Source of the DNA: Psammoneis japonica | Lineage: Eukaryota | NCBI GenBank assembly: GCA_008632985.1 | Contig: QPGO01000114.1 | Location: 1-64,000 of the forward strand | Reading direction: 5' to 3' | DNA: 64,000 nucleotides | In this document: piece by piece, positions 7,531-48,005 of the stretch | Numbering within the stretch: the stretch's first letter is position 1 | Layout of the letters: every line of letters starts with the position of its first letter | Made by a program: the position numbers and the translations under genes | The notes under the pieces: generated by a model | Seen by the model: only the letters and a program-made list of their open reading frames with translations | Told to the model about the DNA's origin: nothing | The model's database searches: none

Positions 7531-9888
7531 AGTGTCTAAGGAAATTGTAAACACAGCATGGCATAGTTTTCATTGCATAGATAATTGAAATGTTGTTTAT
7601 AGCAAATGTTACAGCTAATTAGTCACAAAGAAAGCAATGGGAATGACTCACTGGCGGTCTTTCTCTGCTGACGGTTCTGCTGTTTCCTTGTCTGCAGGAG
7701 TCTTCAACAGAGAAATAGAAGATGCATTATTTACATCTCTAAGGAGTCGGCTGAATGCCTTCCTTCCTCTTGTTTCTGGCACAGCTGTGGCCTTGATGGA
7801 TTAATGGGATCTCCTTTGAGCAAGTCACGACAGTGTGGCGCGGTGGAGGTGTCACCATGCCCAGAGTCTTGGTGGCTCAAAGCTTTACTGTAACAAATTT
7901 CCATTGGCCAATGGGCCTCGTTTCCAACTCATAGAAAGGGAAGTAAAGGAGATTCATCTATTTCTGCTCATATTCCAGCATCATACCGTCTTCCGCAACG
8001 CCGACTTGATTGAGAAGATGAGAGGCGCCAGAGCACTCGTCTCGAGCTTTTTCACCAGTGTTGAGACTAGGAACCACTTCTTTCCCACCTGAAATGTTGT
8101 ATGACGATTAGTTTCTTGGACGTGATTGACAAAGACTCGAATGCGGTGTTAATATCCCTTTTGAGGGCTTCCAGGTTATTGTTGGCGGCTGCCTTCGGAG
8201 CTGCTGGGATGCCCAAAGTGGAGTTGTCATTTCCCGTCTCCTGCATAATGTGATGGCGATGTTTTTGCACACATTGTTGGTAATGGCATATAACAGCAAT
8301 AATGCGCCGAAACATCGGCGTTGAACACATTACTTTCGACAAACGACATCGTCAACAGCAGCGGCACTCACCATTTTGTTTTGTCGCGGTGAAAGTGTGG
8401 AAAAATTAGTTTTTTGCGTTGGCCTGCAGCAGTGATATACAACATATGTACATTGATATCTGTGGTATAACGTTAATATTTCTACGCTACTATGTCGCCG
8501 AAATAAGCACCGTGGCGCAGGCGATTTTGACAAATTCGGCCGATTCCCGACGTAGAGCCACGCAGGCATGTGCCAGTGTTCCGGGAACCGGCCGTCGCGT
8601 TCCCGGAGTGAGCGATGGAGCGATGCACATGACATGGCACTGGAGGGTCATTTCTGGCTTGTAGAAATCTACACGTTGTCTGGCATTGAAATTCAAAAAG
8701 TAATGTTGAACCAACAGCGTTCCCGATCCATTCAAAAACACCGAAACATCACTCCCTCATTCATTTCGTTCGTCAAGACATGGAGAGTGTGCGGCATGGA
8801 ACCATTTCCAAACAAGCTACATTCTGTTCTTCTGTCTCTTCTCACTTGAAAGGCATGTTTACATCGAAAGCAGTGTTGATGCATCATGCATTTGCAGCAC
8901 CAGTGTGAGGATTTTTAACCTGACAATGTCATTCTCCATCTCCATCTTTCCCATGCAGACATGCAGTGCTGCACCTCAAGACACACAGCACCTCAAGAGA
9001 CTCCACAAAGTGTGTTGTGGGTTTTGTTTCTTGTTGCCTTCTGATCTGCAAATGAGGTTTGAGACACAACCTGAACAATTTTGGGTCGTGGTTGTCGGGA
9101 ACGACTTGCACCTCATCAATTTGGGGCTGTCGTCAGAAGACCGCACACTTTGTGGTGACGAGGTGTCAACGAGTTTTGCAAACTCAAGACGTGCAGCACA
9201 GTGCCTCAAGAAATGCAGCACCTCAAGACACCATCACGGAACACAGCACATTGCACCTCAAGTTCGTCTCATTTCTTGTCAAGTGGTGCATGACTGTCCT
9301 CTCTGTGCTGCAGCAAGGTTGCGGTGTGCGCTGGATGAGTTGAGACAGTGTCTCAAGAAACACAGTGCCTCAAGACACCATCACGGAGCATGGTGCATTG
9401 CACTGCGAGAAGCAAAACCATTCATTTCGTTCGTTGACGACAATGTGTTGGTGTGACCTGTTGAGTTCTCGCAATCTTTTTTAGAGCAAGTGGCACTCAT
9501 CCATGACACTGTCTGCTGAGTGTCACAGGACTGTCCGACGCGTTCCAGCCCCAGGTGGGACTCCTTGTGACATTGGGCCCGTAGAATTCTACGTGCGAGC
9601 TCCGTAGTGCGAGAATTTAATCAATGGACACATTTATCTTCAACATCAAATAAACGGCCAAGTTTGTGGTGCAATTGTGCCTCTTGCCACTCGACGTTTT
9701 TGCAACTTCGCCTGCCCCACGCGATTCTTAAGACATTGTAGAATCGCGCTGCAACAAAAAATGTCAAAAGTTGTTGGACGGATCGCTCAACAAGTGCACC
9801 GTAAAATGACACAAAATGTCGAAAAAATCACGCAGAAATCTACGTGCGCGACATGCGACGAGACTCAAAAAACTGTCGATGTCACAGT

Positions 9889-12188
9889 TCAGCAGCACGA
9901 GGTCCCACCTAGACCTGGAACGCGTCGTCCTTTGTTTTGCATGTTGAGTTCCTCGATCACCTGCTTCCGAATCGTCGCTCGCTCTTTCTCGCGACGGCCT
10001 TGCTCCAATTCTGATTCAAGTGCTTTCACCTTCTTGCTGTCTTCATCCGTCTCGCTGCGGACTTGATCCAATTCCTTTGTGACGTTGTTCAATTTTGTGC
10101 GTTCTTCTTCATGCATGACCTTGCACTCACTCTTGCNNNNNNNNNNNNNNNNNNNNNNNNNNNNNNNNNNNNNNNNNNNNNNNNNNNNNNNNNNNNNNNN
10201 NNNNNNNNNNNNNNNNNNNNNNNNNNNNNNNNNNNNNNNNNNNNNNNNNNNNNNNNNNNNNNNNNNNNNNNNNNNNNNNNNNNNNNNNNNNNNNNNNNNN
10301 NNNNNNNNNNNNNNNNNNNNNNNNNNNNNNNNNNNNNNNNNNNNNNNNNNNNNNNNNNNNNNNNNNNNNNNNNNNNNNNNNNNNNNNNNNNNNNNNNNNN
10401 NNNNNNNNNNNNNNNNNNNNNNNNGAATGTCCGCATTGAGCTTGGCAATCTCGACCTGATGGCGCTGCTGCAATTCCGAGGAAACTGCTTCAAAGGTTTC
10501 AGAAGCTTGCACTGTGCGGTTGGTGGATTGCTGGACAGGCGGAAAAGACTTGTGCGGCAGAGCTGGGTTTGTGTCCGAAAGACGTCGGCGTTTTGCTGTG
10601 TCAGTGGGTCGGCGGTCCACAGCATCCAATGCGGCAATGGCTTCATTGCCCATGTCTGAAGAAAGCCTTTTGTGTGGGTCTTGACTCTTTGTGTTCTTGT
10701 GTCGAGCACGACGAAGGCGTTCGGGGGTTAACACCTTCGCGGCCATCATGAGCGAAATGCCGCATGCGCGATTGCCATGGTTGGTGCACTGTTTCCAGTC
10801 CTTGAATTCGCACAACTGTGCAATGTGCTTCACACTCCGATGGCAGTCTTTCCCAATGGCTTGTTTGGGTTGAACTTGCAGGGCAGGTTTTTGAGATCCC
10901 ATTCGCGCTTCTGCACCTTGCTCAGCGGGCCGCAGAAAACGCGAACTTGATCAGGATGCGACCACTTCCGCAACTGATCAAAAATCTTGACAATGCAAAC
11001 AGGGTCATGGGGGTTCTCAACACATTCAATGAGCCCCTCTTTCTCGGTGCGTCCTTTCAGATTTGACAATGACAACTGGTGTGTCTTGTCGATGTCAATC
11101 ACAGAGTTGAGTCGCTGCATGCCAAAGAACTCGGATTGCTCATCATCAACAACGTCTTGATGGAATTGGTCCCACACAGCTTCGGAGACCTCTGCCACTC
11201 CACGAAAAAGGAAGCCATGAGCAAACCAAAACGCAAGCATCTCTTGACAGTGAGAGGGATCCTTGCAGGGCTTGAGCCCACCTTCCACAACTTTCACCCA
11301 AAGCTTTTTGTCGCCCTTCCAATCAAATTTTGCAGCGTTCTTCCCAACTCCAAAGGTGGGATCGCTTTCTCGCAATTCCTTCCATCTCTTCTTGCAGTTG
11401 TCGGCAAACTCTCCTTTCCCATTGAAGTCTTTCTTGAAGTCACACTTTGTGCATTTGCGATGGAAGGTTCCAAAAAGCGTCTTCATGCATTGCCCAAAAG
11501 CAGATGGTTCAAGGGCTTCTCCGGTGGGTGGGTTTTTCCAAGAGAAGAACACCAAGTCGCAACATTTCATCAGCACAAGGCGTTTCGGCTCACTCTTCTC
11601 TCCGCCAACCTCATTGTAGAATCGAAAATCCACGAGGAGACTGTCGCTCATTTCCGTCGGCACTTGCTCCAGAAGGCATTGCATCTTGTTTCCGCCTTTC
11701 TCTCGAATGGCATTGAAAAAGCGCATCTCGAGGTTGCAGGATTTTCGTTGGTGAGTCGTTTCTTGGCCTGCAGCAGCTTCCATCAATTTGCGATCCTCAT
11801 CCGAAACATTGAGGACGCTCTTGTCCTTGGCAATGACAGCTGTGGCAAGGGCGAGAGTCTGTCTGCTGGCTGTTGGCGAGGTCGTTGGAACAGTGGTTGT
11901 GCCCGAATTTGCTGCTGCGCCAGGATTGAACATTGCGGCCTCGGTGGGGTTTGCTGTGTGTGGCTGTCGGTTGACACCGACAGCAAGGTGGGCTTGCGGC
12001 TCCATCTCCACGGAAGCATTTTCTTGAGCCGCCCCCCCAAACAATTGAAACAATGCACTGGCTGCATCCAATGCATTCTGTGTCAGCACAAAGTCAACCT
12101 CTTCACCCTGTGAAAATGCGTCGTCCAAGTTTCGGCGCTCCGAAGGCGCAGTGCTTGAAGCAACAGAAATGTCGTCTCGTGTGTCCAT
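9889..12188 (-). mobile_element. Degenerate tyrosine-recombinase gene, Crypton-like DNA transposon; frameshift near 10835, crosses an assembly gap
   Basis: Catalytic-motif order: FLFRG..E (Arg I), DKT, ENPHDPVC, KPLGKTAI, TNHGNRA (HxxR), ARHKN..SQDPH (His/Tyr box with His at the expected Tyr). Confidence 0.7.
10137..10424. other. Assembly gap (288 N)
   Basis: Run of n. Confidence 1.
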
Positions 12189-12750
12189 GATGATGTTGAG
12201 TCATGATTGGAGACATCTTCAGACGTTCCGCAGGATGTGATGGAAAACAAAACAACAAAAATTAGATTGCACATTACAAAAGCGGTGCAAATCGTCTCTT
12301 CATGTTGTCGTCCTTTAACTGATGGGTTCCTGTGGAAACCGATCATTCACATGGACGCGTCCTCACCTTTGGGTGCGCCTCGGCGTCGGTCGAGCTGTGG
12401 CGCGGAAATCGCTTTGCAATTTCCACACCTTGCGATTTCCACACCACAGCTTGCCCTCCGCCTCGGCGCACCCTCAGGTTTGGCCGCTCCGGCCTCCGTG
12501 GAATTTGTGCGGGAGAACCGGTGCTCAGCCTGCCGGCTTTGCACCGGTTCCGATGACCTCAGCTGACGCTTCGGTCATTCCCGTGCAAATTCCGCGTCGG
12601 CCGGCCAGTGACTGAATGGTTTCCATGCAAAACTCATCTGCGCAGGGCCCGCGCACGCGAAATAAAAAGCAAGACCGTCCGTCACATGCACGCTGATTTG
12701 CAAATTGACACCTCGCTCTGCATCCTGCATCCGACACAAAAAGACAGAAG

Positions 12751-15700
12751 ACACACCGCACCATGGTGCACAAAATTCGGAGGCCCACCACTTTGAGTTG
12801 GCCAGGGTGGGGCTGGTTGGTCACGCACGTTTTGGTTGGATGTGATGAGCAACTGGCCATGCCCTGCAGGAAAAGCTGTTTGGTGGCGTGTGATCAAGCA
12901 GAAGCAGCCAACTTGCAGCCAAAAAGCAAAAAACACGGAGTGGGTCAAGATGTGGCAAAGTGGCATGACAACAAGCAACGAGAAGAAACCCAACTTGACT
13001 CATGAATGTGGCGCACAAATGTTGTCCAATGGCTTTGATCCTGTCTGGAAAAGCCAGCTGGTTGACAAGTGAACGGCGTTCACGTTGCTCGCCATGGTGT
13101 TGTTGTGCATCATGGTGCCGCTGTCATTGCGCGGGAAGGACTGGGATCCATTTTACCCACAGTGACTCTGTTTGTCAACAGTGTGCATTTTGCTGCATGA
13201 AGTCTGAAGACATTCTGAGAAGTGCTTCAGGCGGGTGACCCTGTTCGCACCGTCAAACAGCAATTTTTTAACTCAGATTCCACAGTTCTTTGGGGGTGTT
13301 CTGCACTTTTTTGAGTTCATCTGTGCCTCAAGCTGGAAAGAGAATCATCCATGAAGTGCCGCAAGGAAGTCAACCAGACATGGGAAGGCATCTCAAGGAT
13401 TGACTCCTGTGACCTGCAAGCAGCACTTGATGTGGACTGTGGTCTGCATGATCCCCTTTGACCCACAAGCAGCATGGCACTTTTTGCTTGAGTTCATCAT
13501 CCACAGAAGGATGTTCCTTTGCAAACAACTCAAGAGATTTGTTGAACAAGGCCTGTTTCATGTAAAACCAGAGGATTTGGGAGAGGCTGTCGACAAACGA
13601 CATGCTTCGAAAAGGGCTGCAACAGATGCAAGAAGGGCCCGCCCTTCAATTTTGCTCTTGGCATTTGTCCTCTTGACCAACAACATTCCACATTTGGGTT
13701 GGATGCAGAAGTTGTGATGGCATCAAGGATGATGCCCTTGCAGCTGCTTCTCTGCACAGGCACCGCCACGAGCAAACAGCGCCGCATCTCTGGGCAACTC
13801 ATGGCTTGAGGGAATCATTTCTCTGAAATGCTGAGTGCAACCTGCACATCCTTGGCATCCAACAACTTGTCTGTGGTGCTCAGCACGGTGTCCTCTTTTT
13901 TATCTTGATTGGAAGAGAAGCAAGAATGAGTGCCATCCATTCCTGTGCAACTTGATGCTGTGGCCACAGCACTGCTGCTTCAATCCCTGTTGAATCCCAA
14001 CCAGCAAGCACAGACAAACTCCGGCAATTGTGCCATGCTCAACCTCCAACACCTGGATCAAACCAAAGGCACCAGGACATGTCACAATGCAGCTTGCATC
14101 CCAAAGAGAAATGAACAACAAACCAAGAGGGAAGAACAAAGACAATTGACTCAAAACTGGCAATGACAAACCTGCCAATCTCAAAGTGACACCCGCTTGA
14201 AGAGAAAAGATGCTTTGACTGAAAGTGTGGCTTTCGTGCCCAGCCACCAGCCCTGAAACCAAATTGCTTGTTTCCAGCATTTGCAGCACCCGATTGTGCT
14301 GCAGGTTGGTGGCAGCTTCTTGAGATCCAATTCAACAGCTGCAACATCCAAGCCACTGGAAACAGCACCCACACGACACCACTTGGGAGGTTGGCTGTTG
14401 GAAGCAGGATCCATCGCAGTTCTGCAGCTTGAGCAACAGATGTGTTTGCCATCAAGACTGGCACAGAACAATGTCAGAGCAAAGCATGCAGACAACACCG
14501 CCATGTGTCACAATGATCTGACAAGCACATGGTTCAACAACACCCCAGCAATGCCCAGCAACCAAAATGTCTGCTGTGACTCAACAAGAGAAGCAGCATT
14601 TTTGTCGTCCATGTCAACGCACATCAGTTTGAAACCCAATGGCCTGGGGAACCAGCAAATGAATGCCAAGTCTCCACCCACCATGGTTGCAGGCAGGCCT
14701 TGAACCCAATGCATGAGCTGTGCTTTGCCAATCAGAATTAGACCGCATCCCAACAATGTTGCAGAAAGCCCCAACCTCACAGTGACAGTTGCCAGCAGTT
14801 CATCATTGGCATGACCACTGTTCATGCAGTGCTGGGCAATGGTCCAAGCCATTTGTGACAAAAACATGAGACCCTCATCTTGCGCTTGTCCCATGGCTGG
14901 CAAGAGGCAAAGTCAACAGAAATGACAAACAAACTTGATGAACCATGCCCGATCCAATTGTGAGCTTGGTTGAACTTGGCCATGTGCAGAGCAAAGCTGG
15001 GGTCTCAATGCACGCACAATGTGTGGGGAAGCCCAAATTGGACTCAGCTCCTTTTGCTTCAATGCATGTTTTTGTCAGCGTTGCTCCGTCTCCGCCATCC
15101 CTCAACAAGCTGAGAAGAAGGCACAGGTTCATTGTTCACAATGGCGCTGCAATTGTCCTTTTCTCCCCTGAGCAGTTGCATGGGCTCCTCCACCAGATGG
15201 TCAACAATTTCAGCTTCTGAAGAGAAAATTGCAGAGCAGCCCAACAAACCAAGTTTGTGGTTGCTTGGCAAGAGCAATGCACTTGGTTGTGGCAGCAAAG
15301 GCATCAATGTTGATGGTGTGTCTTCATGCAATGTCAGCCCAGAGCAGCTCTTTCTGTTGCAACAAACACTCACAATGTTCATCTTGTTTAGATCTCTCTC
15401 CCAGCATTGTGTCTTCTTCAATTTCTTCTTCTCAAAATCACTGTGCTGTCTTTGAGACTGACAAAGTCTTGATTTTCAGATCCATGATTTTGAAATTCTC
15501 CAAACAGCCAGTTGTGTCACTGAAGAACCCTGCTTTGAGATTGTGGAGTGAACCATCCACAATGATTTTGGGTCATTCAAATCAAGCTTCAACAGCTTTG
15601 ATTGAACTTCAGCAGAGTGGCAGAACAAAATTCAATGTGAAATTCCTCCAACACTTTGACGGCACTGTCCACAACAATGTTCCATCACAAATCAAACTTG

Positions 15701-15809
15701 GAAGTGATGAACAAGTTCTTTGGTGGATGCAGACATGGCATTGCTTGTCAAATTGTTGTGGCCACATGGTGGCAGGCCTCCAAATTTTACACACCATGGC
15801 GTGGTGTGT
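12751..15809. mobile_element. ~3.06-kb element bounded by 41-bp inverted repeats (possibly Tc1/mariner-like, heavily decayed)
   Basis: 12751-12791 acacaccgcaccatggtgcacaaaattcggaggcccaccac vs reverse complement of 15769-15809 acacaccacgccatggtgtgtaaaatttggaggcctgccac; 33/41 identical. No transposase recognised inside. Confidence 0.7.
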
Positions 15810-16364
15810 TTTTTTGGATCTCTCCCTCTAGCGGGAATCAGACAAAACCAAAAAAGTCTGAAAAACCATTTGCATGTAAGAGGCATTGCTTCTCAATCAA
15901 AGTTCAATCTTTTGAATGATCAACAAATTTTTCATTTGTCAAAAATGAGCACATGAACATTCATCATCAGAGCATTCAACAAGACCATCATTTCTGTGTG
16001 AGTGGTGTTGAACTCAGGTTGACAAAGTGGACATCACAGACAATGCAGTCGAGCAAACAGGGGGCAGCTGTCATGCTTCAAGTTGACTTTAGTGCCGTGT
16101 CCAACATGTGGCCAGGCGTGGCATCAATGGTTGCTGTGGACAGTTGGTTTGCATGCTGTCTGGGCAGGTGGAGGTTGATTGAATCGGGGGTCCTTTGGTG
16201 TTTGCAAAGGAGCAGACCTGTGCCATCTTCCCACTGGGGTTGCCTGGAGCTGATTTGAGAGGCGGGAATGCAGGATCCCTGGAGACAACGGTGGGTTGCC
16301 CGAACTGTGGCGACACTCATCCTTGCATTCATTGGCAATTTTGGTGGGAAAAAAGTGTGCATTG

Positions 16365-16740
16365 TCCTGATTGTCACAGAAAATCTGTGTCAATTTGAAA
16401 ATCTGTGAGATTGTTTCAGGGACCGAATGAAATCTGCAAGATTTTAGAACGGAAAATCTGGAATCTGCCCCGTCTGTCTTCCCCCCTCAGTTGCACAAAT
16501 GTGCACAGGGTGCACGTGTGCCGTGCCGGGAGGACCACTTTTGCTGCGCTGGGCCTTCAGAGGGGTTCTTCAAAGATTGCATGATTTGACAAATTTTGGA
16601 AAAAACTGGCTCCAGTTTTAGCAGAACAATTGAAAATCTGTGCTTTTTGAAAATCTGCAACTGTTTCTGAGGACCCCTTGAAAATCTGCAAGAAATCTGA
16701 ATCCCAAATCTGTGCCACAGATTTTCTGTGACAATCAGGG
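16365..16740. mobile_element. MITE (~376 bp) with 24-bp perfect TIR and internal aaatctg repeats
   Basis: cctgattgtcacagaaaatctgtg (16366-16389) is the reverse complement of 16716-16739. Flanked by TG on the left and CA on the right, compatible with a mutated TA target-site duplication. Confidence 0.75.
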
Positions 16741-19303
16741 CAAATGTTTGACAACAACATCAATGCATCCTCGTGAAAACACTTTTCTGCTTTCACTTGC
16801 AGTGTGGTCCAAGAGTGATTCCCGCTGTGGGGATGGATCATTTTCTTTTGTGTGGCCTGGGTGACAAGTGGCAAGAGTGACAATTTTCAAATCTCCGCAT
16901 GACAGACGGACACACTTGTTGTAGAAGACATGGCCTGCCTGCCTGTCTGCCCACCTTTGTGTCTCAGATGTCTGCATGAGCCAGGGGTCATCACACACTC
17001 AGCCCTGGATGCACTTGAGCCGCTGGCCTGAAATGTTGATGTCATGCGCACATTTTGATCCAGCCGCTGTGAAAAGCCAATGACTCCGGCAGCAACAAGC
17101 AAGTTTGTTCTCAACAGGACATTGCAGCACTCTCATGTGTTCTTTCCTTCATTGTGACATGCAACTTTTTTGTTTGAAATCAATCCAAAACATCTTGTTT
17201 TCCACTTGCAAATGTGCAGGACCATTGCAGAATCCCACATGTTGCCAGTCCAAGTTGCAACTCATTCGAAGTTTCAGTTGCCCAAACATCCCCATTTCAA
17301 CGGATTTGGGTCAAGGTGAAGTTGTTCAATTGTTTTGAAAAGAAGTGCAGCAAAATTGGGACAAGAGCACTGCTGTTGATGCCTCCGATCATTGGATGGA
17401 TGCCGGAACATTCATTGTGAGGTGAGCACTCGAGGGCAAGTTTCGCGGCATTTTCTTTTGTTTTGCTCTCAAAACAAATTGTTCTCAACATCTTTGTTGT
17501 TGGGGTGAAGTTTTCTTGCCTGTTCTTTTGGAAAGAATGAGAATCAGAAGAGCAGCAAAGCGCAGACAAAAATTTTGTTGTGCAAATCAAACGTCTGAGG
17601 AGCCACTCCCCACCAGCAAGTGGCACCACTTTCTAAGACAGACCAACACAAGAGCCCTGGACAACCAGTTCGGATGTGTGTTGCATTGACAACAGATCTC
17701 TAAGAGGCACTGCATGCCTTGGAGACTTTCTTCTGCTGCTTTGGCTGGACAAGCACTGTCCGTCGTGACCTCCAGCCCAACAGCTTCCGGCATCTCAAGC
17801 ACTTGTTGCACTGTGCTTCCAGCTCCAATCACCCACAATCATTAAAATTTGGGACTCATGACAAGACACAGTGAATTTGATGACAACATGTGACAAATCT
17901 TCTTGCAGCAGTCCAAGTGGATTTGGTTGTCAAGATGAGCAGCTTGCAAACAACTTGAAGGCGGGTCTGTGTTTGTTTCTGTTCACATGAAAGCACCCAT
18001 GCAAAAGCACCCTAAAAAGCCAGACACCTCAGCCCATCATCTTCCATGAACACACAAGTGAACAGATGTGATTGCATCCAATGCACTTGGACTTGAACAT
18101 TGGAAATGGCGTTGCCGGTTGATGCACCTGTGGCAGAAATTTTGGCGGAGAGCAAAAAAGTGTCAGCAAAAGTGCGACAACTGACAGTTCGAGCGGCAAT
18201 CGCCTGATGACATCCTTCCCACAGGATCAATCAAGACATTCCTTGTGGGCTCACCAATCAAATTAAAACATTGACGAAGTTGCAACCGAGCAACCAACAT
18301 TGTCCACTGCATGTTCTTGCCACAGAAAAGCATGAAGCAAGGCGGTGCTTGACCAACCAGCACGAATGTCAGGTGACTTCATTCACACCAAATCTTTCAT
18401 TGAATTGTTCAATGAATGTGTGGACCTTTCATGAACTTCAGCTGCAGAGGCATTTGCAACCTTCAATTGGGATGGAGGCAACAACAGCAAAAATGCACGA
18501 GAAACAGTGATGTGAAAAATAAAAGCATCTGAAGGAAAAATTCGAGTGGCAATCGCTGCGCCACATGATGCTTTCAATGGGGTTTAGAAAGACTCTGCAG
18601 ATGCAATTGCCACTTGATTGTCAACATTGATGCCACCACAAACAATTTGCTCACCTTGGTTGAAGTCTTTTTTCTCGTGCAAAAAGCATGAGAATTGTGG
18701 GGTGGCAGACAAACGTGCAAAAAAATGTTTCAGTCAAACATGGCATCTTTTGATTGAATGTCTCCGGCCATTTGCCCAACTCAGACAGCTTTGCTTAAAG
18801 CTGGACTGTCTGAGTTGGGCACACAGGGACATTGAACCACCACACTTGGTTTTGTGACTGACTTTTAAGCTGCTTGTGAGTTGAAACAAGTGCAAGATTT
18901 GGCGGGTGACATCACTCCCTCCACGAGGAGGCAGCACGTTGCAGGCGTTGTTGTCATCATTTTTTTCATGCTCTGCACTTGCTGGCAACTGCATTTCCAT
19001 GCAATGCAATGTCTTGCAATGACAAGGAAAATGCCCCGATTGCTTGTTGAGCTGGCAAGTTTTTCTTTTTTGGTGTGTGCCACGTTTCAACCAGCAACAG
19101 CACTCAGTTGCAACAGTCTGTTGCACACATGATTGTGCTGTTCTTGTGCTCCACTGTCTTTGCTTTTTTGGCATCAGACGACCCAAAAAGTTCTCATGTT
19201 GAAGTGCTGGAAGATGAGCATCCCCCAAAAGAGGTGAAAGTGGAAAAAAGACTTGTGGTGATGGCAAGGCTTTTCATGCTGGCAGACTGGGTGCCATTTT
19301 CTG

Positions 19304-22300
19304 TTGTTGCATGCCGTGCTTGCACTTGCATCATTCAGTGACCACGCTCCCCTTGCCATTGTGGTGCAGCAGCTGGTGCAAAAGTGGAAAAAAACTTGCA
19401 ATGATGGCAAAGTGATGAGACTTTTGCACAAAGAGCATGCAGAAAAAAGACTGGATGTGTCAAAGCCCCCCATCATGACCACCGTGATGATGAAGCAACT
19501 CCTGGGGCTGTTTCCCAATGTTCCTCTCCCCTGCACTGCTGCTGCGATGCTTGAGTGCAACAATCCAACACAGCAACAGAAGGATGGGCCAAAATGTCAT
19601 CGCTGCCCACCTTTCCCAGTTTGCAGTTTCACTGAGACCCTGCAGGATCTCTTCACCAAGCCAGTGTTCTGTGATCTTTCCAAGTTGCAGGTCAATCCGA
19701 GTGACATTTGGTCACCTCATGTGCCACCCCCCACTGACGGTTGTTTGGATTCCAGTGCTGGCTGGGCCAAGGATGTTGAGATGTCATTCCCGGATTGTCC
19801 TGGTGACTGGCAATTGTCCACTCAAAGTCAAGACATGGGTGATGGCAAGTGGCAACAATGTTGCTCCAATGCCAACAAAACAGCCTCTGATTTTCATGTT
19901 CACCTTGTCAATCACTCGGACAAGACCAGAACCAATGCGGTCAATCCTCATGGGATGGAGCCTGCCAATGTGCTCACTTGCCATGATTCAAGAGAATGCA
20001 CACTGTGGCTGTTGTTGTTGTTGTTGTTGGCATCCACTTGGATTCACACCCAATTTGGACAAGAAAGACAAGCTTGGGCACCTTGTTGTTGACAACTGTC
20101 GCCGCATTCTCAAGGAGGTTCTCCGTGGTCTGCTTCATTGCCAGGCAAATCCACCCATTGTTTGTGCAACAATGGGCACTCAATGCCACCATGTCAGAGC
20201 CACAACACATTGCAACTCCCTGTTGGGGGTCATCCTCAATCAAGAATGCATTTGTGGAAGAGTCATGAGCCAAAGCAAGACCAAGAGGTTGTCTCACAAC
20301 TGCCATGTGCCCTCCCACCTGTCTGATGATCCCCTCCATGTCTGCCAATTCTTTGGCCAAGCTTTCATTGAGTTGCTCACTGTTGATGCATTGGGTCTGG
20401 ATCCAGAGGATGACAACAGCGAAAAAAAGGCTGAGACTGAGCCAGCTTCCTCCCTCATTCGCCGAATGACCACATGCTCCAAAACATTGAGGAAAGTGTT
20501 TGGACAGCATGCGGTGGACAATGCTTGCTTTCCACTTGACATGGGTGACAACCCACGCGGTGCATTCGGCATGACCATTGCTGATGTGATGCAGGTGTTG
20601 GAGGTGGGTGTTGTCCCTCAAATGATGGAGGTGACAATGGGAGAGATGTCCGCCAAACAGAAAGAGGAACACGACCGGATTGCATCTGAATTGTTCTGCA
20701 CATCCCATTGTCGTCCAGGTCAGAGACGTGACCATTCACAAATTCGAGTCAATGGGGGACTTTTCACACTCAGTCAACTTGCGTGTGATGAGAAGATGGG
20801 CAAGCTTCTTGCACTTGCAGTCATTGGCCACACACATGCTGGCAGAAAACTGCTGGAAAAAAGGTGCAATCCATCCTTTGACAGCAAAAAGAAAAAGACG
20901 GCTGATGGCTTTAAAGGAAAGAAGCAACAAGAAGAACAGTTCGCCAAATCATCAGAAAGTGAACCCAATGATGAGGACCCTGATCCTGCTGAACCATCAA
21001 ATGAACCAACTGGCAAAACAAACACAACCCCAGTTGATGAGAATGCACCTGTTGCATTTCCTAAAGAGGCATGGTGTGATGTCACCTGCGATCCATCCGA
21101 TTTCCATCACCGCAACCATGTGATGCAACAGATGCATCATCACAGCCTTTCTGAATTTTGGGAACCATTTCCAATCAACTGGATGACCGCTGCTTTTTGT
21201 CATGCCAGAAGATTGCATGGGATGAAACCAAGTCATTGAAGATGGAAACAACACGCTGTTGAGACTTCACCTGATCAATTGTTGATGCCCGGACTGCATG
21301 GTCTTGTCGCTGGTTTGGTGGATGATTGGAACAACTTTGCAAGGTGTGCGGACAGACGGCCCTTTCTTCTCACAAAGACAAAATTGCCAAGCACTGTCAT
21401 TCATGCTGAAACAGAAAACAAACTTCCGGAATCCTTCATGAAGATCACAGATGATGAAATGACAGCCAAAAAATCCGTCGATTGTGGAGTTGATGAGTTG
21501 CTGGACTTGTTGCATCACATGCTGCTTTTTCATTCATTTTGTCTCCATGGCAAGGGACTCTGTGGAAAAACAGGAAAGGTGGATTTCAAGTGCCGCGTCA
21601 TTCTGCTCATGTTCAAGATCAATTCATGCCTTCGTCACGCAAGGAACACTTGCTTGTTCCGAGCCGCCAAGTTCCACTCTGTGCTGCATCTCATTGTCAA
21701 CTCTTTCCTTTGTGGCCAGATTGCAAATTTCTCTGCCATGATTGGAGAGAGTCACCTGAAGTTCTGGGCCAAGCTTCTGGCAAAAACTTGCCAGGTTGCA
21801 TTGGGTGCAGACAATTGCTTGGACCAACTTGTTGTTTGTTTGCATGACATGGCAGTTCTTGAGAAGGCACACAGCCTTCTCATCCCTCCCACTGTTGGTC
21901 AGGTGAGCGTCTTCCTCTGAAGAAAAATTGATGCACCCCTTGTTTGTTGTGAACAGAACTGCCTGAACTTGCTGCCAGTGTTCAGGTGGCAACAAGGTCC
22001 TGGTCGTCCCAGAAACTGCAGAGTTGGACTCTGCCCTGCTGCAGAACTGTCCGCCAAGCACAATGAAGTTGTTGTTTGCTTGGAGTTTGCCACACCAGAG
22101 AAGGGGATCTTACAACAACAACAGGTTGCGGTGTGACACACCCAGGGTCTTGTACGAAGAGGGAGCTGGTCAGAAGAAAAGGCACCCTTTTTTGCTCCGT
22201 GGTTTTGTGTCAGCTGATGATGAAACAACGCCACTTGCCGCAGGACAGTGATGCAAGGAACAGACAAAGATGTTGTGTGACATGTCTTCCAACAGTGTGG

Positions 22301-22520
22301 TCAAGTGCTGGGAACTTGAAACAACAACTGTTGGTCGTGGCAGAGATTCTCAGACGATCCCAAAATTTTGGCATGCCAGCAGAGATGCAATTGCAGCGGG
22401 GGGGTTTCTGTCCTGGTTCCTGACAACTGCAATGGAGACAACGTTGAAGTGGTGAGATGCTCTGTCTCATTGTTGTTTGTTGCAGACAGACACAATGACT
22501 GGCCAAATCATTTCCTGTCC
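19304..22520 (+). mobile_element. Degenerate Plavaka-type (CACTA/CMC-related) transposase, several frameshifts
   Basis: Motifs HSDKT...MEP; VDNACFPLDMGDNPRG..G...DVMQ...VG; AKFHSVLH.....CGQIANFSAMIGESHLKFWAK.LAKTCQ; C-terminal FVADRHNDWPNHF. These resemble Plavaka transposase motifs as I recall them (KfH..H...fG...N....gE..lK..aK). Confidence 0.65.
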
Positions 22521-22669
22521 AACAAAGTGCTCCAGCTTCACTCAGACAAATGCAGGAAGCAAGAAAAAGGTGAACGACAACGCACCTTGGGAAAAAGGAA
22601 ATGTTCGCAAATGTTTTTTAAGCATTGTGAGTGCTCCAATGAGCCAGCTGCAATGGCATGTCAACCCAT

Positions 22670-24900
22670 CTAAAAGCATCTGTTGGATCCACTCCTTGTT
22701 GCTCCTTCTGTCAGCAACTGGAGCGAGCAGCAAAAAATTGCCAACTTGTCTAAAAGCGCTGGTTGGTCCTGCTCAGTGTTGATTCTTGAAATTTGAACAA
22801 ACCCCCTCTGCTTCGTCAAGTCATGCTTTGACTTGCCACAAGAGCAAACATCGACATGAGTTGACAAATCACACCATTGATTGCCAATGAAATGTCCAAT
22901 CCTGTGCTCCAATTTGTCAGGCCACAAACCACTTGTCGACTTGTTCGAATGCTCCAAAGAGCAAATGGGTGACACACCATGCTCGCTGGATGCAAGGCAG
23001 CATGGATCCTTGTGCAACATGTTGTTCATTGATCGATGTTCCCTGCAGCCTGGTTGGCCACATTTGGCCCAAGTTGGTCTTCTGCCATTTTTTCTTGCAA
23101 CTTCAATTGCATTTTGAACAACTTCCCTTGCCTTCAATGAGGAGATCCATTTGCCTCTTGTGTGTGCTTCCTTCCCCACAACACACATGTTGACAAAGAG
23201 ACAAAATCCAGAATTGCCCTTGGATGTGTGCGCCTCTGCGGCATTTCAAGGGGAGGGTTTGTCCCATCATGGAAGCCAATTGCCTGACCTTGTGCTCGGC
23301 AACCACTGCTTGGGCAAGTTGTTCTTCCTGGCTTTGCAACAAAACAAAAGTTCCCTGGCAGATTTGTGACTTCCATCAGAACATCAAATTGACTGGAAAT
23401 GAGTGCACAGCAGATTTGCATCTCCTTCATGTTGGTCAATGAAGGATCCATGCGTTGAAATCTCTGTAATGTCAAGCATGTCATTCCGCTCACATCGCCG
23501 TTGTTCTTCAATCATCACTTCATCATCAACACCAACTGGTGACGCAACAATCCCATTTCATTTTTCTGCAACAAAGTCTTCACAGATTCTTGGTTTTTGG
23601 GTTTCACAGATTCCCTCAATGCAGCCAGAGCAACAAGAGGTGCACCGTTGAATTCCACACCCACAAATGCAGCAAATTTGTCTCCGTGGTGGAAAGCAAT
23701 GCATCCCTCGCAGTGAAGCATGAAATTGAACCAGCTGTGGAAAATTGATCCCAGGAGAAGGTCTCTGTCTGAGCCTTTGTCAACAAGCAATCATGACATG
23801 CCCTTGTGATTGCCGCTGTCAAATTGCTGAAGGTGACCCCCAACACATTGGGCAGCGCACTGAATGTCATCTTTGTTCTCCATTGTGGAAAGGTTGAAGC
23901 TGTCTGTCTGTGATTCCAGTTGTTCCAACAGGGCATTTGCATGTTCACAATCCGTCTTGAACAGTGGCTTTCGCAACTGGATTCCGACAATCTCTCTGTT
24001 GCATGACAGATGGTCAAAAGCTGTGATTGTGATGGGCACAGAATGCCTTTTCAGCTCATCCACCAAATCATTGCCAATGTTGTAATCCCGCCAATCATCA
24101 ATGAACATGACACCATTGCTGACATCATCCAAGAGGAGTTCCCACTTGTTTTTCAAGTCAAAGTGTTTTGGAGGGAAGCTGGTCATGTGAGATCCTGCCT
24201 CATTGAGTTTTTTAGCACACCTTGCAATTGTTCTGGGCAACCCAACCAGGCTTGGCATTTCTCAGACAACCTTTGTCTTTCTTCCAGCATTTCTCCTTGG
24301 GGAGACCTTTGTGTTCCCTGCAAAGCTTTTTGGCACACAATGTGAACCAAAATCACGGTCAGTTGCAAAATCCACTGTCTGCGCCAGGCAGAGAGATCTT
24401 TTTCCTTTTCTGTTGATCCAGGCTTTGCAACACCTGATCCACCATTGCGGCTCCAACCTTGAGCAATCACTCCATTCACACCAAAATCTTTGGCAACAGT
24501 CCCTCGAAATGAACGGTCAAACTTTGCAGAAAGTAAAAACTCTTGTGCCAACCCACTGCTCAGCCCCTGTTCAACAATCTTTCTGAGCTGCATCAACAAA
24601 CCCAATCCAAGAATTCTTTTGTCAAACTTGCGTGACCTGAACATGCAATTGTTGGCAATTCCTTCCATTGTGTCAAGGTGTTCAAAACAAATGGATGAGT
24701 TGGATCGCCTGCCTGGTGTGGGTGATTGGCGTCCGAACGCAGAATCTCTGCCTTGCATTGAAGGTGCCCACACATTTGCTCCAAAGCATTTGGACCCATT
24801 GCACCATGTGCTGTTGCACACAGCTTGAATTGGATGACAAGGGAACACCTCATTCCCTCCCTGCCTGGTTTTTCAACAAAAAGAATTTCATTGTCAAGTG
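22670..24900 (-). pseudogene. Decayed unknown coding sequence
   Basis: Chain of protein-like minus-strand ORF pieces (24183-24848, 23791-24258, 23134-23511, 22670-23188). No family recognised. Confidence 0.3.
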
Positions 24901-24999
24901 CATCAGACAGCTTGTTGGACTTCCGGCGAGGTTGTTTCAGGCAGAATTTTTGCTTGACTTCTCTTTCATTGTTCAAATGTTGCCAATGCTTTTGGGGCG

Positions 25000-26620
25000 T
25001 GTTGACAACAACCCGAGTTCTTGCCTCCCACCCCGTGTGGTTGGTCCTTCTTCCTCCAACAACTGACAAGATTGGCGCTGCACTGTTTGATTTCCTGGAG
25101 GAAAGATTCTTCCTGGGTTTTCTTGCTGTTTTTTCTTCCACATGCAGAGTCAGGCATGTCGTTGCAGTCAAGATCAGACTGCACAGCCTTTCGGATGGGA
25201 ACCTGCCTGCAACATGGGCATCACAGAAAATGCTTGTGTCTCTTGAGACTGCATGTTGGACAATGCACACAGTTGTCACCGGTGAAAACTGGAACACAGC
25301 AAGGGCCCTTTCTTTGTCCAGCCAATCCGACAAATTTGACTGGACCTCCAAAATCTGGAAAACACGCCAATGCAGCTTCATCTGTTTGTGCAAGAGATGT
25401 TTCACCTCTTCCTGTTTTAAGGATGGATCTACGTGCTGCGGTCTAATTTGAAATGGCTTGCATTTCCCGCACTTCACCGTGTTGTTTTGACCTGCCTCGG
25501 AAAACCCTCGAACACTCATGCGTTTGTCAAACCCTCACAGGGGCTGTCAGATGGCTTTAAGAGCTGAACATTTGGCGCTCAAAATGCCACTTGTTGACCC
25601 ATGCCCTGTTGTCAGGTCGGAAAAACCGCTGATTTTTGCTAAAAATGGGCTTCTTGTGGCAGATTGGCGGTGACTTTCTGGGAAATGCCGACAAGTGGCA
25701 TTTGACTGGCTGTTGACATGTCTGCAGTCGTCAAGGTAAAACTCGTGCATGGCCATGCCTGTTGTTTAAGCATTCTGGCAGAGGGTGTCTGGCAAACGGA
25801 CAAAGTTTGACCCATCGCTGAATTTTTTTGCGAATGTGTGCGCATTTGCTGCGATGCATCCGGGTTGTTTGTGCAAAAATTGCGAGCTCCCAAAAAACAG
25901 ACTGCAGCATGTAGATCCATCCTCAACTCATGATCCTTTGTGTGCTCTTCCCTTGTGCAAAACTTTCCATGGGCAGAGATGTCTGCTTGTGCCTCGTCTT
26001 GAAGGAAGGGGGCCTTGTCGTGTGCTCACTCTTCATGCAAGAAGCAAACAATGCACTCTTCCAACACATGTTGTTTCTTCCATTTGACCCAAAACTCTGA
26101 AAAAGCAAGACTGCACACAGGCAAGAAGAAAATCCCAGTTTCTGTCAGCAACAGCAGCAGCTCCCTGAGTGCATCTTGGAAAAAAGGTCCCTTCAGAGCT
26201 GAAGCCGAGAGAGATGCGCCGGGTTTGAACACACGCAGTCAAAGCAAATGTGATCAAGCTTCGCCTCTTTGGACAATCTCTTCCACTCTGCTGATCTGTG
26301 CAAACTTGGAACATTGCACTCTGTGTGCTTTGGTGAGGAAGCACAGCACATCCTCTCATCAATTGTGCAAACGTTGCACACAAGTTCCTGCGGGCGTTGA
26401 GTTTGAATGCTGTCACGTGCATCTTTGTCACTTCCATTTAAATTGCCACTGACTTCCATGCCAGTTGCCAACAATCTGCTGGCATCATGGAACACTGCTT
26501 CACTCTCTGCCCCAGCTCAGATTTTGTGTTTGTCATCCATGTCATCCGTCTCCGCCCAAGCTGTGTTGTTGTTGCAGTCATGGGTGGCCTCCTTGCTGGA
26601 GTCGATGCCAGCGGCAATCA
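25000..26620 (-). pseudogene. Decayed gene, possibly a Rossmann-fold methyltransferase-like protein, interrupted by a MITE
   Basis: LDHICFDCVCSNPAH (back-mutates to LDHIYFDYVYSNPAY) followed by FFQDALRELLLLLTETGIFFLP, resembling the fD.i..D and L..gG.i.l strands of SAM-dependent MTases. Weak. Confidence 0.3.
25421..25922. mobile_element. 502-bp MITE, GG...CC termini, TTAA target-site duplication (Kolobok-like signature)
   Basis: ggatggatctacgtgctgcggtct (25421-25444) vs agactgcagcatgtagatccatcc (25899-25922): inverted, 2 mismatches, both CpG transitions. Flanks are TTAA (25417-20) and TCAA (25923-26). Confidence 0.8.
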
Positions 26621-27509
26621 TTTGACTTTGAGCTTGGCTTTCATTCTAGGAGACATCAACATGGATTTTGTCAGGCAAGGAACAGATGGGAAATGGAAGC
26701 AGCACGCTCAATGCAATCCCTCACCTCAACAGCCACAGATCTTTTGCATTTTTTGGTTTGGAAGTGGCGCACATTGATCATTTTTCTGCGTGCCTTTTTT
26801 TCTTTTGTTGAGCCAGCTCCAGGAGGGCTGCCTCCTTGAAAGCCAATCTGGCACAGCTTGGATCTGCTGGCCACTTTGCAAAGTCACCGAGGTGGTTTGG
26901 ATTGTGTGCATTGCTCTTCCCACTGCTCTCGAACATGAAGATTTTTGCATCAAACATCATCAGCATGATGCCACGGATGAAGTGGTCTGTCAAACCCCCT
27001 TTTTAAGTGACAAATGAAGGTGACCGCGTTTGTTCACCCAATGTGTGGGAGAATGACACAGCCTCAATTTTGTGTCAAGGCTGTTCTCCACACTGAACGG
27101 GGCCAGATGCACTGGGGGGGGGGGGGGGCAACGGCCAGATGGAATGTTGGCCAATGCTGTTTTGTGACATGGCAGCGGCAAAGCAATGCCAGGTTGAGTC
27201 AGGTGGAATGTCATCAGGAAAGAAGTGTGATGTGTTGGACTGAAATGAGATTCGTCTGTTCCATTTTGGTGATGTGGCATGACAGGCAAGGGATTGGGCA
27301 GCATTCTGTGGGGTGGGATCATGTTGAGGTTGTTGTTTCACACAGGGAATGACATGGCTGCAGAGGACAAGAGATGGCGTCACCCCAACATCATCCGTTC
27401 ACTGCTCAACATGTGTTGATCAGCAACTTGGACCAGATTTGGGAGACTGTGGTTTGCTGCGGGAGATGTGCTTCATGTCACAACAATGTGCAGGCTTTTG
27501 TTCAGTGCA

Positions 27510-27742
27510 TTGACAAAAAAGTGACACCAAATTGATCTGTCAACAGATGGTGCATCAACAAAAAAGCAATGCCAAATTGTTCTTTTGACACAGACATGTG
27601 CAACAACAAAAAAGTGATGCCAAATTGATCTGTCAACAGACAGGCGCATCAATGAAAAAGTGATGCCAGGTTGATCTGTCAACATGTGGGTGTGCAACAA
27701 AAAAGTGATGCCAAATTGATCTGTTGACAGATGGGTGCATCA
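27510..27742. repeat. Tandem repeat, ~45-bp unit, ~5 copies
   Basis: aaaaaagtgatgccaaattgatctgtcaacaga-like unit recurs at ~27515, 27560, 27608, 27655 and 27699. Confidence 0.85.
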
Positions 27743-28123
27743 TTTGCAGTTGTTTGTCATGTGCATTGATCTCAAAGAGATTGTTTTTGATGCAGAATGA
27801 ACGGTGGATGGTGGCTGTTCCTTTGTTTCAGCGGCGGCGTCAACATGAAAACATCACACAACAACCCTGACAAGATGGTGTGCAAGCAAGTTGTTTTCTG
27901 TGCTTTGAGACAGCTGGGATGACCCATTCAATGAAGTCATGCAGCAAACTGGATGGACAAAGATCATGTCACAAGGGGCCATTTGCAAAAAAAAGTCCAC
28001 CGTGCACCCGACAGATGCTGTTGGCAACACAGCAATGGATGCGGACTTTCGCTGAATTGGGTGAAATCTGCTTAAAAAAAGACCAGGTTCCATTTGATTT
28101 GGTGGAGCCAGCATGTTCAGAGA

Positions 28124-28886
28124 ATGGCGCAAAAGTGCTCTGTTGACGGATGCCGGAAATTTGCCCGTTGGCCAACAACGTCATGTCAGAAACATGGCAA
28201 GTCACCAACACACCCGGGTGAAGTGAAATCTTGTGTCGTCAAGAGCAATGTGGCCAGGTGCAAAGAAAGAGTGCACCAGGAAGGGAAAAAAGGCTGCTTG
28301 CAAAAATTCAAAACACCACAACCCCTGCTCAACAAGATCACAACCCTGGCAAACAAGGCACCAAGCAGCAAGCAAAAGAAGGAAAGACACCGTTTTGTTG
28401 GTGAGTTTGCCATTGACAAAAAGGACAAGGCGGAAGGCATTGAGTTGGCAGAAAAAATGTTGGAGTTAATTCCTGGCTTTCCCCTGGCAGATGATTTGGG
28501 CAGAAAGATGTCTCGGTGCACTCACTCCTGCTTCAAGTTCAAGATCAAACTTCTGGCAAAAGGGGGAAATTCATCACAATTGCATGGAAATGGAGCCATT
28601 TCCTGGTGACAAAATTTTCACCATGTCTCCATTCCTTGATGACACAATGGAAGACAATGGCACACTTGAGATGTGGCTGGACAGTTGTGAGGCAACATCA
28701 AATGAGAAGGAACATGAAAGACACTTGGTCAGGTTGGGTTTGGAAAAACAATCGCTGGTTGGAGAAGCAGGCACTGCATTTGTTTTTGATGCAAGAATGT
28801 TGCACCAAGCTTTGCCCAACAAAACAAATTTGGGTCGAAGGAACATGGCATGTCTGGCCCACAATTTTGACACAGCAAGTGTGTGA
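28124..28886 (+). pseudogene. Decayed gene: CxxxGC...C.KHG zinc-finger-like N-terminus plus PhyH-like 2OG-Fe(II) dioxygenase domain
   Basis: CSVDGCRKFARWPTTSCQKHG, then (frameshifted) FLDDTMEDNGTLEMWLDS...GEAGTAFVFDARMLHQALPNKTNLGRR, matching the PhyH pattern dd....nG.l....gS...aG.vvfd..l.H...N.s..R. Confidence 0.6.
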
Positions 28887-30699
28887 ACAAGCAGTCGTTG
28901 GAATGCAAAACTGGCCAAGTGGTGAGTTGGCAAAGGCAAAAAGTGAGTTTGTGCAAATGGCCAATTGACAATGCATTGCTTGCATGGAAGAAAGTCACCT
29001 AAAAAAAGGGAAAGTGCGAAGTTGCCCACTTTTGGCAGGCTTGAATTTTTGTTTGATGTCAGTCCCTGGGTTGTTCCCAGCGGAATGCATTGGCTCCACT
29101 GTGCTGTCTCTTTTCTTGGTGTGCTCATGAAGCAGGTGCCTGTCAACACCACCTCCCCATGACAGATCATCTGGACAGGCAGGAACAGAGAATGCTTCAT
29201 GCCTCCATTTGTGGGCACACACACAAAACATCATGTCCAGCAAAATGACAATGGCGCCTTCAGGACACTCATTGGACAGCATCTCCTCAAGTTGGTTCTG
29301 TGTTGCATTGTCGTCAAAAAGCATTCACCCATTGCAGTTGTTGAAGAAAATTTTTAAGTTGTTCTGATGGTGCAGCCTGCACACAGCATCATCTTCAGAG
29401 AGGAAGTCCTCATTGATCAGGGTGGGACAATGACCGGTGGGGTTGGGCCAGATGGCGTTGCACCACTGAGAGCCCAAATCATGATGGGTGGTGGAGCTCA
29501 ATGCTGTGGGCATTGCAGGAAGGAACAAGCAAATGACAGGCAATCACAAAACCAGCACAACCACTGCCAATGTCAAGGAAATAAAAAGAGCTGCGAGTGT
29601 GGGCCGCAAGGAGAGCGGGGTTGCAAATGACTTCGGCAAAGAAGGCAAAGCTTGCCATGCCACCATGTGATTCCACACCATCACCAGCAAAATGACCCAT
29701 TTGATCATCAATTGGTGGCATGTCATTGCAGTGGAGGGAACACATGTTCCTGCAACAGGAACGACTCACAACAACCATGTCTCAGTGGCAACAAGATGCT
29801 TTGGCAGCCATTGGAGGACCAAAAGGGAATGCGCTAAATTGTGGACAGATGCTTTTGCTGATGTGCACACGCTCAACAACAATTGGAAGTGGGTTGGATG
29901 GTTTGGGTGACCAAGAGAGCAATTGGAGAGATGTGGTGTTGGGGAAGTGGAGAGAATGACCGACCAAGACAGGGACAAATTGACAAGAGACAATGCGTGA
30001 TGTGGATTTGTGTGAACAAACAGGGGGTTTGACACAACTTTTAAAACCCAACGAAACTGATGTTGCATCAGGAAGCAGGTGCAATGCACACATTCATGTA
30101 AGAACATAAAATGTGTTGTTTGACATTGATTCGAATGATGTTGCAATCTTCACTGAGGCACTGGGTTGGCTGGCAAAGGCTCACAATTCAAAACAGTGGA
30201 AGGTTGACAGAAATTCAAACATGGGGTTGGGAATGAGCACTCAAAAATGATGCAAACACCTGTTTGAATTGAGAGAGGACACACGAGCAATGACAAAACA
30301 GAGAAAATCACATGCAAAGTGCGCCCACTTTGCAACTCACCTGCTCACAAAGCAACAGGAAAGGACAGCAGTTCCAAATGAGAGGAAGCCATTGGGGAGG
30401 TAAAAAAATGGAGGAGATGGTTCTCACAGGAGCAACAGAGGGAGGAAGTGTGACTTCAAGCTGTGAGCAAGGTTGAGAAAGGACATGACAAAGAGTTGCT
30501 GATGAACCAACAGAGCTGGATTTGCCTGTGTGGTGTCACGTGAAGTCACCATGAGCCCTGCGGTGGTGGCCTTGTTGAGCACACAAAGAAATGAACATGA
30601 GGAGCTGAACAGATTCCAGTGCACAGGTGGGGATTCGAGTTTGGTGTGGTGACTCCCTCAGAGGGATGTCTTGTGTTGGATCGTGCACCAGCGGTGGGC

Positions 30700-39399: not shown

Positions 39400-39520
39400 C
39401 CATCAACCCCACAATGGCGTCAAGGATTTCATCACGAGTTTTGTTGCTCTTGTTGCGCTCAAAGGGTGTCTTGCCCAAGACGAGTTCCAAGGTGAGCACG
39501 CCGAGCGACTGCAAATTCCT
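39400..39520 (-). pseudogene. Short protein-kinase fragment (subdomain IX-like)
   Basis: NLQSLGVLTLELVLGKTPFE resembles DlWslGvl.yEl..G..PF. Confidence 0.5.
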
Positions 39521-40470: not shown

Positions 40471-40499
40471 TGTCTCCAGCATTGAACTACCGGGTGCGA

Positions 40500-47634: not shown

Positions 47635-47635
47635 T

Positions 47636-47937: not shown

Positions 47938-48005
47938 CAGTTTTTATGCCAAACAAGAACTGGCACATTGTGCTGCTGGAAGATGTCAACCTGCACAATT
48001 CTTCC

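Follow-up and report, generated by a model that had tools for sequence, protein, structure and literature searches.

The window analyzed here, a 64,000-nt stretch of DNA from the diatom Psammoneis japonica (contig C116 of a 91.4-Mb genome), contains a segment, 17600..18900, that has lost most of its TA dinucleotides, and it raises the question of why the few TA sites left there are nearly all of the form YTAR. An earlier note had listed nine such sites, eight of them CTAA, TTAA, or TTAG, and had read them as the residue of a process that prefers TAY and acts more slowly on TAR. The count proved exact: the segment includes CTAA at 17634, 17701, and 18013, TTAA at 17843, 18264, 18796, and 18866, TTAG at 18585, and ATAA at 18520, and no other TA, against 94.9 expected from base composition (for CG, 23 observed and 67.9 expected). 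At least eight YTAR of nine would occur by chance with a probability of 4.8e-6 at the YTAR share of normal DNA (0.168), and the segment is a rather strong example of the bias, since the probability is only 0.013 even at the share characteristic of depleted domains (0.47). All nine sites carry T at -2 or A at +2. No differences from 17776-18287 and 16704-17516 were found in matching contigs assembled from short reads of one run, which probably derives from the same sample.

The window was partitioned by a two-state HMM into three TA-erased domains and normal DNA, and the following features are referred to below.

8702..33468: TA-erased domain 1, which contains 17600..18900 (TA observed/expected 0.051, CG 0.42; two-state HMM)
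38560..52297: TA-erased domain 2 (TA 0.067, CG 0.58; two-state HMM)
53601..56549: TA-erased domain 3 (TA 0.015, CG 0.135; two-state HMM)
9537..9926: young 390-bp MITE with terminal inverted repeats and a 4-bp target duplication (about 1500 candidates in the genome at first look)
17070..18740: old dispersed non-coding repeat with 45 genome matches, the best paralogues being 72-82% identical
19262..21920, + strand: decayed ORF pieces, including a 573-aa frame with 0 Tyr, 31 His, and 33 Cys
35428..36462, + strand: ornithine carbamoyltransferase gene in normal DNA, a control with TA and Tyr intact

Normal DNA of the window has a TA observed/expected ratio of 0.56-0.83 and includes ordinary genes, and its long frames contain 10-12 Tyr, vs. 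0-1 in erased DNA. The absence of Tyr from the 573-aa frame and its abundance of His and Cys are explained by the conversion of Tyr codons (TAY) to His (CAY) and Cys (TGY) codons. Pfam and homologue searches with the ORF pieces of 19262..21920 returned no match, a search with the 573-aa frame found no homologue, and an atlas search with a 262-aa frame was likewise without a match; the resemblance of the piece at 21279-21917 to Plavaka (CACTA-like) transposase clusters is a lead only. Erasure has sharp boundaries: it is limited to domains of foreign or transposon DNA and spares genes, although edited duplicates of host genes also occur. In domain 2, host-like genes are present as edited duplicates, and the paralogues of these genes at other loci are unedited (41751-43904 vs. 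locus L015, 92% identity; 43907-45941 vs. L016-L022, 82-87%). Among 25 ten-kb stretches of the genome picked without a hit nearby, TA-erased DNA accounts for 0.53 of bases; stretch L130, called depleted, is partly N. Some domains are already TA-erased while their CG is still largely intact. Other features of the window include a DUF4116 repeat protein gene in normal DNA (61483-63114), with a partial TA-erased paralogue near 46629-47254 and in L014, a tandem array of ~93-bp units (31-aa repeats) at 40928-42278, whose paralogue is unedited in L015 and edited in L014, and a run of 288 N within domain 1 (10137-10424).

The bias toward YTAR is found elsewhere, as the earlier note had also observed within the domains. 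The depleted domains of the window retain 142 TA (72 YTAR, 37 RTAR, 30 YTAY, and 3 RTAY), vs. 164, 233, 276, and 299, respectively, in its normal DNA. Outside the window (207 kb of depleted and 161 kb of normal DNA, both strands), YTAR constitutes 854 of 1802 surviving TA and 2276 of 13,576 normal TA; RTAR, YTAY, and RTAY contribute 430, 430, and 88 survivors vs. 3646, 3646, and 4008 normal sites. Survival there depends on context, the ratio of depleted to normal DNA falling in the order TTAA (0.44), CTAA (0.30), GTAA (0.15), CTAG (0.14), CTAC (0.11), ATAA (0.058), CTAT (0.042), GTAC (0.038), ATAC (0.011), and ATAT (0.005). T at -2 or A at +2 is present at 838 of 1043 survivors, compared with 4196 of 8714 normal TA. 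Base effects near survivors are strong up to ±5 and mostly absent farther out, except for offset ±14, which departs from the background (p=2.7e-4). CpG is enriched 1.2-1.6 at most offsets, which we take as a confounding effect of domain age. Runs of five or more A or T persist, as also claimed, at 4.23 per kb in depleted vs. 3.55 in normal DNA.

The direction of change was established from repeat copies; all polarized cases are repeats by construction. The repeat at 17070..18740 retains 7 TA in the window, vs. 57 in the unedited copy on contig C72 (L007), and at the TA positions of the latter the other copies mostly have CA or TG, at similar frequencies. In L007 (1-4120), a TA-erased ORF fragment (1-800) runs into the unedited copy, which lies just upstream of a DUF4954 gene, so that protection by an adjoining active promoter is possible. 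The MITE at 9537-9926 differs from its unedited copy L052 by 18 substitutions, 11 TA>CA and 7 TA>TG, and by no other change, with 11 TA left and CG untouched; 18 TA edits and 0 other changes fit a very high rate. Most of the 53 collected copies of this family (L038-L099) are located in TA-erased flanks, and several of them retain all 29 TA; the MITE is therefore a natural clock of the process. In 51 copies (two were too diverged and were dropped), TA>G affected 340 of 2955 sites (11.5%), compared with 6/3517 for AA>G, 4/4380 for CA>G, and 2/2491 for GA>G (0.08-0.17%), and the A of TA underwent 8 other changes vs. 340 A>G; CG>T and CA>T amounted to 34/2950 and 19/4380. Twenty-nine copies of the end piece of an LTR element, compared with a natural copy, gave 910/3483 for TA>G and 24/2787 for AA>G, and 40 further pairs of intact and edited copies gave 476/745 and 81/2454. 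In the MITE and LTR sets the frequency of AA>AG is thus 30 to 50 times below that of TA>TG, in line with the earlier argument against a general WA signature. Of the two outcomes that would have spoken against the earlier note, context-independent survival of NTAN and AA>AG as frequent as TA>TG, neither was observed. Copies share ancestry, and some MITE pairs are identical at every shared edited site. In three LTR element copies (L162, L168, and L169), the interior is heavily edited and much of the terminal part is not; the LTR may be protected, or that part may have arisen more recently. A second MITE family, also very young, is represented by L132:4760-5136 and 39 further places (377 bp, 98-100% identical, ~1300 candidates); it entered the kinetic set only via copies within other loci.

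The context of editing was quantified with a competing-risk model of 87 sites and 1526 observations in 17 MITE and 18 LTR copies; the rate model omits MITE copies with fewer than 7 edits, MITE site 338 (inherited), and, among the 31 LTR copies, the 13 with light editing. A second, independent set comprised 438 further sites, with one pair omitted. In the 87-site model, the relative rates for the edited A were 7.5 for T, 6.7 for C, 2.1 for G, and 1 for A at +1; 1 for A, 0.57 for G, 0.38 for T, and 0.33 for C at -1; and 3.7 for C, 2.7 for T, 2.0 for G, and 1 for A at +2, T at -2 giving 0.35. The consensus of fast sites is VRTAYB, and T at -2 or A at +2 marks slow sites. At asymmetric steps, with TAY on one strand opposite TAR, the adenine of TAY received 530 edits vs. 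261 and was favored at 171 sites vs. 66. The proposed preference for TAY over TAR is therefore real, yet the one-strand model behind it is incomplete, the effect being mostly symmetric. The suggestion that a TAC preference echoes the UACG substrate of TadA is not supported: TAC and TAT are not separable by kinetics (P=0.69) and survival favors TAT, the edited share of TACG (0.42) is within the range of TACC, TACA, and TACT (0.41-0.54), and TACG survives 2-3 times better (0.093) than TACC (0.041) or TACT (0.033).

Most of the context effect is strand-symmetric. At 87 sites, cross-validation favored a model with symmetric terms from ±1 to ±3 and a single antisymmetric term, that at ±1, and a one-strand motif restricted to the 3' side predicts held-out data worse (1425) than the symmetric model (1351); the same order was obtained for the 438 further sites (604.5 vs. 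595.3). At ±2, the symmetric part is 0.7-1.2 log units in the first set, with antisymmetric terms of 0.00, -0.04, and -0.03 and intervals spanning 0; in the second, the symmetric terms are 0.77, 0.28, and 0.50 and the antisymmetric ones 0.13, 0.08, and -0.10, zero within error. The 438-site set is less decisive, as its cross-validation does not prefer the symmetric over the one-sided ±2 model (597.1 vs. 594.3) and one of its antisymmetric terms, at ±3, has an interval clear of 0. Survival rises with the number of slow ±2 flanks (0.19, 0.32, and 0.61 for none, one, and two), and edits at sites with such flanks split 321:279 between the strands (0.535), vs. 0.79 (0.74-0.84) in simulations of a one-strand enzyme on the 87-site set. 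A preference for palindromes or hairpins was rejected, given that the self-complementary TTAA and CTAG are slow. The pattern suggests that the property read may be the ease of opening the duplex TpA step, because the psoralen signature has the same ATAT optimum.

Edits are present on both strands of every copy, and the two strands are independent, without concordance. No same-strand clustering was detected in any of the 14 distance bins tested (p_hi 0.098 or more), and processive strand clusters were rejected on this ground. AA/TT steps around survivors (about 700 independent sites) oscillate with a period of 9.6 bp and peak ~6 bp away, half a turn out of phase. When the data were split into two separate halves (428 and 326 deduplicated sites), the amplitude was 0.075 (p=0.002) and 0.088 (0/1000 draws), compared with 0.012 in normal DNA. 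The same phase lowers the edit rate in intact/edited pairs (-0.178 per SD, 0/200 permutations), with phase constants derived from survivors that partly overlap the edited copies; both the LTR piece and the remaining pairs show the effect, and the MITE alone lacks it (-0.036, 29 sites). A/T-rich steps mark minor-groove-in positions in nucleosomes, according to the available text of PMC8228248, and survivors, being off the AA/TT phase, would therefore face minor-groove-out. Either the writer needs an exposed major groove or exposed lesions are repaired; bases facing minor-groove-in are described as mutating more because of poor repair access (PMC10281986, available text).

The 13 lightly edited LTR copies bear on the spread of the process. 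In their last 160 bp, edits decrease as the TA content of the flank increases (rho -0.77, p=0.002), and the end adjoining the TA-erased flank is edited first; edits thus seem to spread inward from erased flanks. Unedited and fully edited copies coexist (L015 at 92%, L016-L022, and L007). Together with the flank dependence, this points to chromatin position, rather than copy pairing, as the probable determinant, although the unedited state of L015 beside edited copies could equally reflect selection on functional copies or young age.

The reading that we favor, at about even confidence, is that an enzyme recruited to heterochromatin attacks TpA in nucleosomal duplex DNA, probably by deaminating A. 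A host enzyme would be recruited to silenced, transposon-rich, and probably CG-methylated chromatin and would attack TpA steps of double-stranded, nucleosome-wrapped DNA, engaging the step as a duplex unit over ~12 bp. Its best target would be an easily opened step, i.e., alternating R-T-A-Y with neither T at -2 nor A at +2. One of the two adenines would be converted, most likely to inosine, with a 2:1 advantage for the adenine before a pyrimidine, and replication would fix A:T>G:C; each site would be hit once, because fixation destroys the TpA. Such events would be single, fall on either strand, accumulate over many generations, and creep inward from erased flanks. The survivors would comprise YTAR sites, sites with stiff T-tract or A-tract flanks, and sites with the minor groove away from the histones, either least hit or best repaired. 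The adenine lesion, the enzyme itself, the nucleosomes behind the period, and the recruitment by heterochromatin are what we infer from these patterns. We know of no natural adenine deaminase acting on double-stranded DNA. None acting on single-stranded DNA is known either, according to the available text of a review (PMC10960570).

Several other explanations were weighed against this mechanism. A lesion on A and a lesion on T leave an identical sequence record, A>G being indistinguishable from T>C on the other strand, and the T of TpA might, in the same chromatin, be either modified (oxidized or alkylated) so as to pair with G or aminated to 5-methylcytosine in a reversal of RIP. C5-methyltransferases flip pyrimidines, and the genome has 27 C5-methyltransferase-like matches; of these, five intact methylases were inspected and keep the ordinary PC motif, and three further copies (L187-L189 on C301 and C297) are TA-erased pseudogenes. 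No amination of T in DNA is known to us. A genome search for Tet/JBP had no match, which weighs little, as the control gave no match anywhere. We found an ATAT optimum at TpA in just one other signature, that of psoralen, which is thymine-directed according to the available text of PMC10632143, and on balance we regard a thymine lesion as unlikely. In another scenario, which appears quite unlikely, the writer is specific for TpA but blind to context, and the pattern arises from better repair at YTAR and at solvent-exposed positions. Minor-groove-out survivors are indeed the pattern described for repair-limited lesions (PMC10281986, available text). Repair of one damaged strand would not obviously produce exact ±2 symmetry. 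Inosine is removed from DNA by the AAG/MPG glycosylase family, for which the genome search gave no match, with a control detected in only 4 of 14 cases, so that absence is not proven. Improbable, in our judgment, is a model that builds on the TadA suggestion of the earlier note, a TadA- or ADAT2-type enzyme reading T-A-C(-G) in single-stranded DNA or hairpin loops. The strict 5' T and the favorable C at +1 agree with it, as does the reported requirement of wild-type TadA for UACG and the preference of TadA-8e for UA in hairpin loops (PMC12296453, available text). Single-strand reading is at odds with the ±2 symmetry and the helical period (the 438-site set being less decisive), the lack of strand clusters, the poorer fit of one-sided models, the slowness of TTAA and CTAG, and the indifference to TACG. 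Deaminase searches of the genome (PF00383, PF14437, and PF02137) identified ordinary dCMP, guanine-type, RibD, TadA, and ADAT2 enzymes without expansion, and ADAT3 was not seen in them. The single ADAT2 match is ordinary, with HxE/PCxxC and the Asn stressed in the available text of Mettrop et al.; this Asn is no mark of a DNA editor, because it occurs in all four solved ADAT2 chains aligned. Two genes with ADAT1/ADAR-like deaminase domains are also present (L179 on C40 and L180/L181 on C79), the latter with 317 relatives, the named ones in diatoms, and with no dsRNA-binding domain in the two scanned.

The remaining three explanations carry far less weight. Pol eta makes A>G at TA, and an error-prone polymerase of this kind (WA>WG) copying repeat DNA would account for the change at TA; AA>AG is at background (6/3517 vs. 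340/2955 for TA>G; 81/2454 vs. 476/745) and strand-coordinated tracts are absent, which refutes canonical Pol eta and makes a polymerase of this kind very improbable. Damage to TpA by a small photoreactive, psoralen-like intercalator would agree with the action of psoralen chiefly at ApTpApT, with effects over ±2 bp (PMC10632143, available text), and with the ratio of 0.005 for ATAT. The excess of transitions (340 vs. 8 other changes) and the sharp boundaries of the domains render it extremely unlikely; the spectrum refutes it unless repair leads exclusively to T>C. Finally, the bias might reflect how new TA arise (CA>TA and TG>TA) and not how old TA are removed. Comparison with paralogues shows that the unedited copy L007 has TA at 17634 and 17701, and that several further copies have it at 18264 and 18585; two of the seven alignable sites, 17843 and 18013, appear to be of new origin, 18520 falls within an indel-prone A run, and 18796 and 18866 have no aligned paralogous copy. 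A part of the nine sites is, judged from this alignment, not composed of old survivors. Nonetheless, the survival of TA present in unedited copies follows the same order (227/405 for YTAR, 292/1083 with one slow flank, and 56/649 for RTAY), and the formation of new TA is refuted as the main cause and hardly credible as the source of the bias, although in old domains it may contribute to the tail.

The surviving contexts thus suggest a mutator of double-stranded, nucleosome-wrapped DNA, unlike the tRNA editor TadA. More broadly, and with somewhat less than even confidence, we propose that adenine is deaminated (or thymine rewritten) directly in double-stranded nucleosomal DNA by a natural enzyme that reads the TpA step symmetrically across one turn of the helix and that spreads together with heterochromatin. 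It would be a GC-directed counterpart of RIP, common to diatoms and Rhizaria, and would have rewritten roughly half of the 91-Mb genome. If true, this would be a new class of eukaryotic genome defense that raises GC in silenced DNA. It would also be an activity that base-editing work lacks, the natural A-to-G editing of double strands, and would supply a dsDNA A-to-G editor ready for use, whose predicted specificity is VRTAYB (fast) and TYTARA (slow). The extended context is a fingerprint of the writer and provides an in vitro and in vivo test for any candidate (library NNNTANNN); it speaks against the current proposal of single-strand action by TadA/ADAT2 and would place the event on duplex chromatin DNA.

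Among known systems, RIP of ascomycetes is likewise a dinucleotide-specific transition hypermutation of repeats, which inactivates transposons. It is triggered by homology, affects both copies, depends on the RID methyltransferase at a premeiotic stage, and makes TpA from CpA. Its chemistry is the opposite of that in the diatom, where CA>T at CpA/TpG is found at 19/4380 and TA is destroyed instead of made, and RIP was ruled out on this ground. Retroelement hypermutation of the ADAR/APOBEC type was rejected as well, as there are no one-strand clusters, both strands are edited, and a DNA MITE is hit. TadA and ADAT2-ADAT3 share with the diatom process the required 5' U/T and a chemistry (A>I) that would give A>G; TadA is described as reading UACG in single strands or hairpin loops, and the diatom process has no preference for TACG, is strand-symmetric, and is helically phased. 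The psoralen (PUVA) signature, as given in the available text of PMC10632143, has in common with it the TpA target, an ATAT optimum (survival ratio 0.005 here), and context effects 2 bp to either side; it differs in being chemical and genome-wide and in including transversions (T>A and T>G besides T>C). Both probably share the physics of opening the TpA step in duplex DNA.

The most similar system was described in Bigelowiella natans (Mettrop et al., bioRxiv 10.64898/2026.01.13.699255), whose integrated viral DNA and other foreign DNA undergo TpA hypermutation. The available preprint text describes A:T>G:C transitions at TpA only, on both strands, localized to silent foreign or transposon DNA, with long-term loss of TpA and gain of CpA/TpG, a ~1000-fold rate per generation that varies between lines, and ADAT2 as the proposed enzyme. 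TpA hypermutation as such is thus already known, and the words diatom, context, flank, and trinucleotide are absent from that text (Table S2 of the preprint could show context). The ranks of flanking bases, the duplex symmetry, the helical phase, and the spreading are described here and not in the available text. Literature searches for diatom TpA depletion, TA dinucleotide, RIP, and adenine deaminase returned no report on diatoms, most subscription papers being outside their scope. The diatom represents another lineage and a larger scale (0.53 of bases in the 25 stretches). Common to both organisms are changes that are nearly all transitions, the restriction to TpA, and the targeting of foreign or transposon domains. 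The diatom process is not RIP, Pol eta, ADAR-type editing, or canonical TadA reading; it works like that of B. natans, all three testable features of which are found here.
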